Shown one piece after another: positions 30,592 through 30,895 of a DNA stretch of 64,000 nt. The notes beneath the pieces were generated by a model. That model was not told the DNA's origin and searched no databases. It saw only the letters and a program-made list of their open reading frames with translations. The first letter of the stretch is position 1; each line of letters begins with the position of its first letter. The position numbers and the translations under genes are program-made. This stretch comes from an uncultured Clostridia bacterium (GTDB lineage: Bacteria; Bacillota; Clostridia; UMGS1883), in contig CAKSFM010000002.1 of NCBI GenBank assembly GCA_934454525.1, positions 9,792 through 73,791 of the forward strand, in the 5' to 3' direction.

Positions 30592-30895
30592 ACAAAAGCC
30601 GTTAGGCTTTTGCAGCGTGTCGATAAGCTATCGACACGCTGGCAGACGTTGAAAAAGGAAGGTAAATCTGTTCGGCACACACTCGTCGGCGTACAAAGGT
30701 ACGTTAGAGAGTGCGCCGGACGGAAACAAGCAAAAAACTGAAATTTCGGGGGTTTGAGGGCAATACAAACAAATAACTGATTAATTGTCGTTTTCTTTTG
30801 AATCTAAACTTTTTCACATTAATGCGATAAAAATTAGAGTTTGCTTGTGGTTGACCGACTTTTTCGACAGTCTGACAAAAGCCGTTAGGCTTTTG
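30592..30895 (+). repeat. 265-bp repeat family, copy 1: 262-bp core (30613-30874) flanked by a perfect 21-bp direct duplication of a hairpin
   Basis: Flanks acaaaagccgttaggcttttg at 30592-30612 and 30875-30895. The core starts cagcgtgtcgata and ends tcgacagtctg (imperfect terminal inverted repeat). It is about 96% identical to copy 2 over the first ~125 nt, identical over the last 34 nt, and diverged in the middle. Confidence 0.85.

Follow-up and report, generated by a model that had tools for sequence, protein, structure and literature searches.

The subject of this study is a short repeat in the genome of an uncultured Clostridia bacterium, lying within a stretch of 64,000 nucleotides that we call the window (assembly GCA_934454525.1, contig CAKSFM010000002.1, positions 9,792 to 73,791 of the forward strand). 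We conclude that its 262-bp core is very probably a non-autonomous derivative, resembling the miniature inverted-repeat transposable elements known as MITEs, of an insertion sequence (IS) of the IS1182 family, from the ISCbo5/ISBma2-like subgroup of Firmicutes. Its insertion is independent of the target sequence and confined to short perfect palindromes, which are duplicated base to base; these targets are typically intrinsic terminators just downstream of genes. After insertion, a stem-loop of 21, 21, 25 or 31 bp is present on both sides. The traits of a MITE are all found: a size of 262-275 bp, terminal inverted repeats (TIRs), target-site duplications (TSDs), the lack of an open reading frame (ORF), and dispersed copies, with at least three loci in the window species and at least five in a second genome, the metagenome-assembled genome (MAG) JAZNGX01.

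Similarity to the IS1182 family

The assignment is carried by the termini, which read CAGCGTGTCGATAA... on the left and ...CTTTTTCGACAGTCTG on the right and match as inverted repeats (IRs) at 9 of 11 terminal positions. An end consensus, CAGnnTGTnGAcAAAg, with the termini CAG...CTG, was derived from 19 left and 19 right ends of autonomous IS1182-family elements, and the present element fits every invariant position of it at both ends. Set beside ISCbo5, its left end, CAGCGTGTCGATAA, compares with CAGGCTGTTGATAA, and its right end, taken as the reverse complement, CAGACTGTCGAAAAAG, compares with CAGATTGTTCAAAAAG. This ISCbo5 copy is located on plasmid p3BKT015925 (NC_015418, the accession NC_015426 being p2; our locus L030, 35706-37318), and its 454-aa ORF scores 472 bits on the NCBIfam model NF033551 'IS1182 family transposase' (cutoff 270).

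The likeness extends to the layout of the left end. Every sequence feature that a first-pass annotation of the window had listed here (the direct repeats, the core, the left hairpin, a nested hairpin and a long-range helix) was found again in its place. It was also right to describe the TIRs as imperfect, but the 13 bp of its 5' hairpin are more aptly taken as the left IR followed by an inverted copy of itself. Of the autonomous relatives, 13 of the 17 examined have a left end of this kind, folded as a terminal hairpin (among others the Bacillus cereus and Enterococcus faecium elements and those of loci L034, L042 and L044), and in the remainder the hairpin is set back from the terminus by a few bases. 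Across six sequences the stem hardly varies, with 12 of 13 pairs unchanged and pair 11-20 being A-U in four sequences and G-U in two. In many autonomous relatives (L048, L049, L052, L054, L073), another strong hairpin immediately precedes the start codon of the transposase gene, and the layout of the element's conserved left 125 nt matches the left end of these relatives.

The long-range helix, between 30643-30656 and 30860-30874, is present both as an inverted repeat and in the minimum-free-energy fold of the core. It consists of an internal IR-like motif, CAGACGTTGAAAAAGG, paired with the right terminal IR, CAGACTGTCGAAAAAG; the motif matches the right end at 14 of 16 positions. Given this pairing of CAGACGTTGAAAAAGG, the left end contains three IR-like motifs, arranged first forward, then reverse, then forward again, an arrangement that recalls the left-IR duplications of IS1272 (IS1272L).

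The element does not encode a transposase of the IS1182 DDE type (NCBIfam NF033551; Pfam DUF772 and DDE_Tnp_1_6). As had been noted at first reading, the core holds no conserved ORF, and tblastn of the ISCbo5 and E. faecium IS1182 transposases against the window and all sister and MAG loci gave no match. Consequently, we regard the element as a derivative and not as an autonomous member of the family.

Duplication of the target hairpin

The core of copy 1 lies between two identical 21-bp hairpins (hp1), which fold with an 8-bp stem and a 4-nt loop (dG -10.8 kcal/mol). Using the core as a blastn query, we found exactly one further copy in the window, which is 86.5% identical (copy 2; Table 1) and is flanked by a different hairpin (hp2; 13-bp stem, dG -22.6). 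Both window copies occupy the same sites in sister-strain contigs from human-gut metagenomes, and many assemblies break near the element.

In the sister lineage P0126, the GAPDH of which is 99% identical, the copy-2 site is empty (L088-L095; 8 places from 21 contigs). Downstream of GAPDH, the sequence runs from ...catataaa through one hairpin, AGGGATTCCGCAgtttTGCGGAATCCCT, to tttgtcgttgt..., and a convergent TetR gene lies at a distance of 62 nt. The flanks of copy 2 in the window match this empty site (catataaa ... tttgctgttgt), with hairpin, element and hairpin between them. Since hp2 is single at the empty site, the repeated hairpin is a true TSD. Further, another sister species (L087) lacks the element at an orthologous site that lies upstream of a GH28 gene and carries just one strong terminator hairpin. 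The first-pass annotation had suggested looking for such empty sites, and its view of the insertion as structure-directed is supported by the empty copy-2 site together with the different hairpins found at every copy.

When empty sites were sought within the same species by exact look-up of the GAPDH, histidine kinase and TetR proteins, all the sites obtained were either filled or interrupted by a contig break. For GAPDH variants at 96% identity, the downstream regions could not be aligned. One contig (L020) was rejected as an empty-site candidate, its synteny break lying 20 bp outside the hairpin.

Beyond the window species, a 20-mer from the conserved left part was found among 185,579 species genomes in five contigs of one Clostridia MAG (JAZNGX01, SGB_1789), where the copies are ~82% identical to those of the window. 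Each of the five adjoins its own distinct perfect hairpin, which ends exactly at CAGCGTG. The only MAG copy seen on both sides (L002) lies between two 21-bp copies of TAACGGAGTAAAACTCCGTTA, with an A-run only outside the left copy and a T-run only outside the right: it is a bidirectional intrinsic terminator, split and doubled by the insertion. The hairpin begins 8-9 nt after the stop of an open frame at three of the MAG loci (frames of 583, 238 and 237 codons), and the targets there are therefore gene terminators. Over the window species and the MAG, eight different target sequences adjoin the same element terminus. The duplication is thus locus-specific and as long as the hairpin, as first proposed, with a different hairpin at every copy, each ending exactly at CAGCGTG. 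Repeats of 21 and 31 bp that join the ends of two homologous cores without a single base of offset cannot be put down to chance.

The GTDB genome scan yielded this one MAG only, plus three chance 20-mer matches in proteobacteria. PLSDB plasmids and INPHARED phages, searched with the core by blastn, gave no match, and IMG/VR gave 0 matches when scanned for exact occurrences of three different end patterns. In JGI metagenomes there were chance matches only, one of them within a CRISPR array. There (JGI contig Ga0172372_10203769; L010:369-395), a spacer and the end of a repeat match the left part of the element at 25 of 27 nt (CGACACGCTGGCAGACGTTGtAAAcGG). This match is probably due to chance, since 4 nt belong to the repeat, the similarity ends after 23 spacer nt and the host is GC-rich; the spacer may also be directed against the end of a related IS.

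Hairpin-length duplication in related elements

Duplication of a whole hairpin is general in the ISCbo5/ISBma2-like subgroup. ISCbo5 on p3 is flanked by a duplicated terminator hairpin (a 30-nt repeat), and all but one of the insertion sites of ISCbo5 in Clostridium botulinum group III and C. novyi are hairpins at gene ends (PMC3098183). An element on E. faecium pELF, with a transposase 42% identical, has a 25-bp hairpin repeat. On B. cereus pBCXO1, an element with a transposase 54% identical has a 32-bp hairpin repeat and begins with a 13-bp perfect terminal hairpin. When the E. faecium empty site was rebuilt as the flanks plus one hairpin, it gave an unbroken match to sister plasmids, with 100% identity (771/771 nt).

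A scan of IMG/VR with the transposase profile gave 52 loci, at 16 of which an exact 20-32-bp repeat adjoins both termini; these are all the elements that could be delimited. All 16 repeats fold as hairpins, with dG from -8 to -19 kcal/mol, and most are flanked by A-rich sequence upstream and T-rich sequence downstream. At several further loci (L041, L046, L061, L069) the pattern recurs, slightly shifted in register. A 4-bp repeat (GGCC) takes its place in the distant ISCfr1 branch (28% identity). At one of the viral loci (L037:1074-1098 and 2648-2672; IMG/VR UViG_2927265810_000002), the duplicated target is AGCGTGTAGACaaaGTCTACACGCT, with a C before it and a T-run after it. This target looks like the left-end terminal hairpin of another member, and elements of the family can apparently insert into each other's end hairpins.

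The novelty first claimed for the repeat must be withdrawn: its termini match a known IS end, fitting the consensus of autonomous IS1182-family elements, and the phenomenon of hairpin duplication is already known. Direct repeats consisting of whole hairpins of 15-44 bp, beside termini 'cag...ctg', were tabulated for ISCbo5 in 2011 (Table S3 of PMC3098183), and they are implicit in the direct-repeat range of 2-60 bp that ISfinder gives for the IS1182 family (PMC7335449). IS1182-derived MITEs are themselves known. The present element is the first miniature derivative of the hairpin-duplicating subgroup that we could find.

Weighing the alternatives

Several points count against a derivation from IS1182. 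The likeness to known members covers only ~16 nt per terminus, plus the shared architecture, and comparison of the element with the 52 IS1182 loci by blastn-short and nhmmer gave no extended nucleotide homology. An autonomous parent with matching ends was not found in the window, the MAG loci or the 52 IMG/VR IS1182 loci, nor in viral contigs scanned with the element's own end patterns, and none was returned by 20-mer scans of GTDB genomes and JGI metagenomes. Pfam searches on 10 window ORFs gave only housekeeping or carbohydrate-active enzymes and no parent transposase. Copy 1 has no clean empty site, the kinase promoter region of the sister lineage being without hp1 altogether. There is also covariation within the internal hairpin, a possible sign of function at the RNA level that a MITE could do without.

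This covariation bears on the most serious competing explanation, namely that the repeat is primarily a small structured-RNA gene, encoding a small RNA or a cis-regulatory RNA that was mobile or duplicated, with the left 125 nt as the functional RNA and the hairpins as its terminators. We consider this unlikely. The core does fold far better than shuffled sequence (z = -8.2 on the plus strand and -7.0 on the minus strand), and the plus strand folds 20 kcal/mol better than the minus strand. In the hairpin at 30667-30724, RNAalifold found pairing kept through five double-sided pair changes between the window and MAG lineages, with G.U pairs on the plus strand only, and these changes suggest, from a comparison of two lineages, selection on structure. 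MAG copies also have an internal terminator-like hairpin and T-run right after the conserved left part, and a weak promoter-like site lies in the right part of the element. However, the internal terminator is degenerate in both window copies, and no convincing promoter was seen upstream of the structured part. Nor is there any match to Rfam, a check that had been proposed at first reading: the whole window gave 0 hits at the gathering threshold, and 30500-31000 gave 0 hits even at E<=1. The flanking hairpins pre-exist at the empty site and so are not part of the element. As for the covariation, it could have accrued in diverged parent elements and been inherited from them; these have comparable 5'-untranslated-region (5'-UTR) hairpins, which probably control transposase expression or bind protein. 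That the miniature element has an RNA function of its own is possible, if improbable, and is not required; such a role would add to its identity as a transposon, not replace it.

Two other groups of mobile elements share some of these traits. A derivative of IS200/IS605, a palindrome-associated transposable element (PATE) moved by the TnpA HUH enzyme, or of IS110/IS1111, with a bridge or seeker RNA, might be suspected from the subterminal perfect hairpin at one end and the structured non-coding region. Palindromic targets would suit the latter, members of which often lie in repetitive extragenic palindromic (REP) or attC palindromes, according to one report (10.1101/2024.04.26.591405). Yet such elements make no long target duplication and pick a specific sequence, whereas long TSDs are present here and all targets differ while the left part is nearly identical. 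True TIRs are present as well, and the termini match the consensus of the IS1182 DDE family, so that an origin from either group is very improbable. Accordingly, programming by a bridge RNA of the IS110 type was rejected on the grounds that the targets vary and the RNA-like part is constant, and an IS200/IS605 PATE on the presence of a TSD. Recombination of the Xer/dif or integron attC type was likewise rejected, the flanking hairpins having no common conserved sequence. That the repeat is not mobile at all, and that the hairpins are two independent terminators or the product of slippage or local duplication about a conserved intergenic module, has a negligible chance of being right. In its favour, all sister strains of the window species carry both copies, the insertions thus being fixed. 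It is refuted by the empty site, where a single hairpin lies between conserved flanks. Further, unrelated loci in two species hold copies, with a hairpin that differs from one to the next, assemblies are interrupted at the repeat, and a rearrangement breakpoint falls exactly at an end of the element.

A possible mechanism of insertion

If the repeat is an IS1182-family derivative, then it would have kept from a full-length element the left IR, the inverted IR copy, the further IR-like motif, the 5'-untranslated hairpin and the right IR, and would have lost the ~1.35-kb DDE transposase gene. It would therefore move by means of transposase supplied in trans from a related full-length element. 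We speculate that the transposase captures the palindrome as an extruded cruciform, a four-way junction, and that two strand transfers take place at the base of this junction, one on each strand. The two attacked phosphates would be neighbours in space, but on linear DNA one hairpin-length apart, and gap repair would therefore copy the whole hairpin. Attack on the other strand pair of the junction would leave 3' flaps, with loss of the hairpin, which could account for the 'IR-replacing' behaviour of IS1272. Capture of a cruciform is a conjecture, and a hairpin on single-stranded DNA at a replication fork may be the substrate instead. The hairpin-targeting mechanism of IS1272 has been called novel and uncharacterised (PMC4923244).

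A wider proposal is one that we put forward tentatively and regard as doubtful. The hairpin-duplicating subgroup might use a biochemically undescribed form of DDE target capture, in which an extruded cruciform is bound, strands are transferred at the base of its four-way junction and the choice of strand pair decides between duplication (ISCbo5, the present element) and deletion (IS1272), and the 262-bp element might define the minimal cis requirements, its structurally constrained internal hairpin perhaps acting as an RNA or as a DNA structure that the transposase binds.

Comparison with known systems

Among known systems, ISCbo5/ISBma2-like elements are alike in their CAG...CTG termini with homologous IRs, their left-end terminal hairpin, their Clostridia host, and their targeting of hairpins at gene ends without sequence specificity, with direct repeats that are whole hairpins (PMC3098183). 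ISCbo5 differs in its 1.6-kb length and 454-aa DDE transposase, where the present element has 262-267 bp and no ORF. In the present element, unlike ISCbo5, the 13-bp stem of the left hairpin is perfect and an additional IR-like motif comes after it. IS1272 and TnSha1, members of the IS1182 family from staphylococci, have a transposase of the same family and also target terminator hairpins by structure, with no primary-sequence consensus (PMC4923244, PMC5678879), and the number of IR copies at their left end varies (IS1272L). In contrast to the present element, which duplicates the hairpin intact, IS1272 is reported to delete part or all of it and to leave no duplicated target.

MITEPye1 of Paracoccus yeei (PMC11578231) and the Methanosarcina acetivorans MITEs with ISMac2 (PMC3852290) are likewise small, ORF-less, bounded by TIRs and attributed to IS1182-family partners. 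They differ in having direct repeats of 0-4 bp and no hairpin targeting, as does ISCfr1, and belong to a different subgroup. A 2024 review of prokaryotic MITEs mentions neither IS1182 nor hairpin-length duplications.

Class C group II introns home just after intrinsic terminator stem-loops, also by structure. They are ribozyme retroelements of at least 0.7 kb, do not duplicate the hairpin and have no TIRs. A remnant of such an intron was considered and rejected: the present element is of the wrong size, and Rfam gave no intron hit for it.

Implications

For annotation, the signature of CAGnnTGTnGAnAAAG termini plus a duplicated local hairpin puts a name to intergenic repeats of gut Clostridia that are missed by pipelines and by Rfam. 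In these genomes it accounts for duplicated terminators, assembly breaks and at least one rearrangement breakpoint. Insertion into a terminator that is regenerated on both sides may offer a low-cost 'safe harbour': because both flanks keep an intact terminator, the upstream gene would stay terminated and the element would be insulated from read-through. The comparative set assembled here (19 autonomous ends, at least 16 hairpin TSDs, two empty sites and a 262-bp minimal element) makes it testable how a DDE transposase duplicates a hairpin while its relative IS1272 deletes one.

Features of the two copies and their surroundings

Table 1. Positions of the two element copies, their parts and the flanking hairpin duplications in the window
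Feature	Position	Strand	Description
hp1, left TSD copy	30592..30612	.	21 bp, ACAAAAGCCGTTAGGCTTTTG, identical to 30875-30895
MITE-like, probable non-autonomous IS1182-family element, copy 1	30613..30874	+	262 bp; second copy 86.5% identical; ends fit the IS1182-subgroup consensus
Left-end terminal hairpin	30613..30641	+	Left IR CAGCGTGTCGATA, 3-nt loop, inverted IR copy; 13-bp perfect stem
Third, internal IR-like motif	30643..30658	+	CAGACGTTGAAAAAGG; pairs with right IR; 14/16 identical to right-end reverse complement, one gap
Long imperfect hairpin enclosing nested hairpin	30667..30724	+	Same position as the 5'-UTR hairpin of autonomous relatives
Right terminal inverted repeat	30859..30874	+	Reverse complement CAGACTGTCGAAAAAG; identical in 4/4 complete copies; fits every invariant consensus position
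hp1, right TSD copy	30875..30895	.	21 bp, ACAAAAGCCGTTAGGCTTTTG, identical to 30592-30612
hp2, left TSD copy	45505..45535	.	31 bp, AGGGATTCCG[T/C]AATTTTTTTGCGGAATCCCT, 1 mismatch to right copy
MITE-like element, copy 2	45536..45802	+	267 bp; at the same site in sister-strain contigs L011-L013 and L019
hp2, right TSD copy	45803..45833	.	31 bp; single hp2 is the shared GAPDH/convergent TetR terminator in the sister lineage

In one sister-strain contig (ERZ27287182 k141_947814; L011:5090-5412), hp2 lies to the right of an element 100% identical to copy 2, and another hairpin, hp3 (AGGGATGCAAatataTTGCATCCCT), lies to its left. Exactly at the left terminus of this element, synteny with the window stops, and GH28/GH3 genes follow instead of TetR. 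The junction points either to homologous recombination between the element and a third copy identical to it, or to a one-ended rearrangement (a deletion or an inversion) mediated by the transposase. Between GAPDH and hp2, the window holds a 43-nt block (45834-45876) with a second terminator hairpin (AAAACGGCGTCC...GGACGCCGTTTT). The block is not in the sister lineage, where hp2 directly adjoins 'catataaa', and is a small indel beside the insertion site. Another strain-variable junction lies ~20 bp outside hp2 (window ~45484; L020:2585; the contig ends of L021-L028). Here L020 links the TetR side to unrelated genes, one of them with a Cytotoxic (PF09000) domain. Many contigs end at this junction, and sister-lineage homology also stops ~12 nt past the hairpin; it is a second recombination boundary beside the element.

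At the copy-1 locus, comparison with the sister lineage (L104-L109) shows in the kinase promoter region (30524-30921) an insertion of 383 bp (30539-30921), which has a 15-bp imperfect direct repeat, TATTTATT[A/T]TATCAT, at its borders. The hairpin, element and hairpin make up only 304 bp of this insertion, and the remainder includes a GC-rich hairpin (~30546-30566). Through the 15-bp repeat the -10 box is now double: one promoter lies distally (30912-30940, minus strand), and an extended -10 lies proximally, beside the kinase start at 30513. The ancestral kinase promoter is shared with the sister lineage, and in the window the 383-bp insertion now parts the promoter from the kinase start. Between the two element copies (31024-44469) lie two adjacent giant minus-strand genes, of 2172 and 2303 aa, the first of which has SLH, FIVAR and Flg_new_2 domains. 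In the sister lineage the giant genes are replaced by other genes, and the whole segment between the copies may be lineage-specific.

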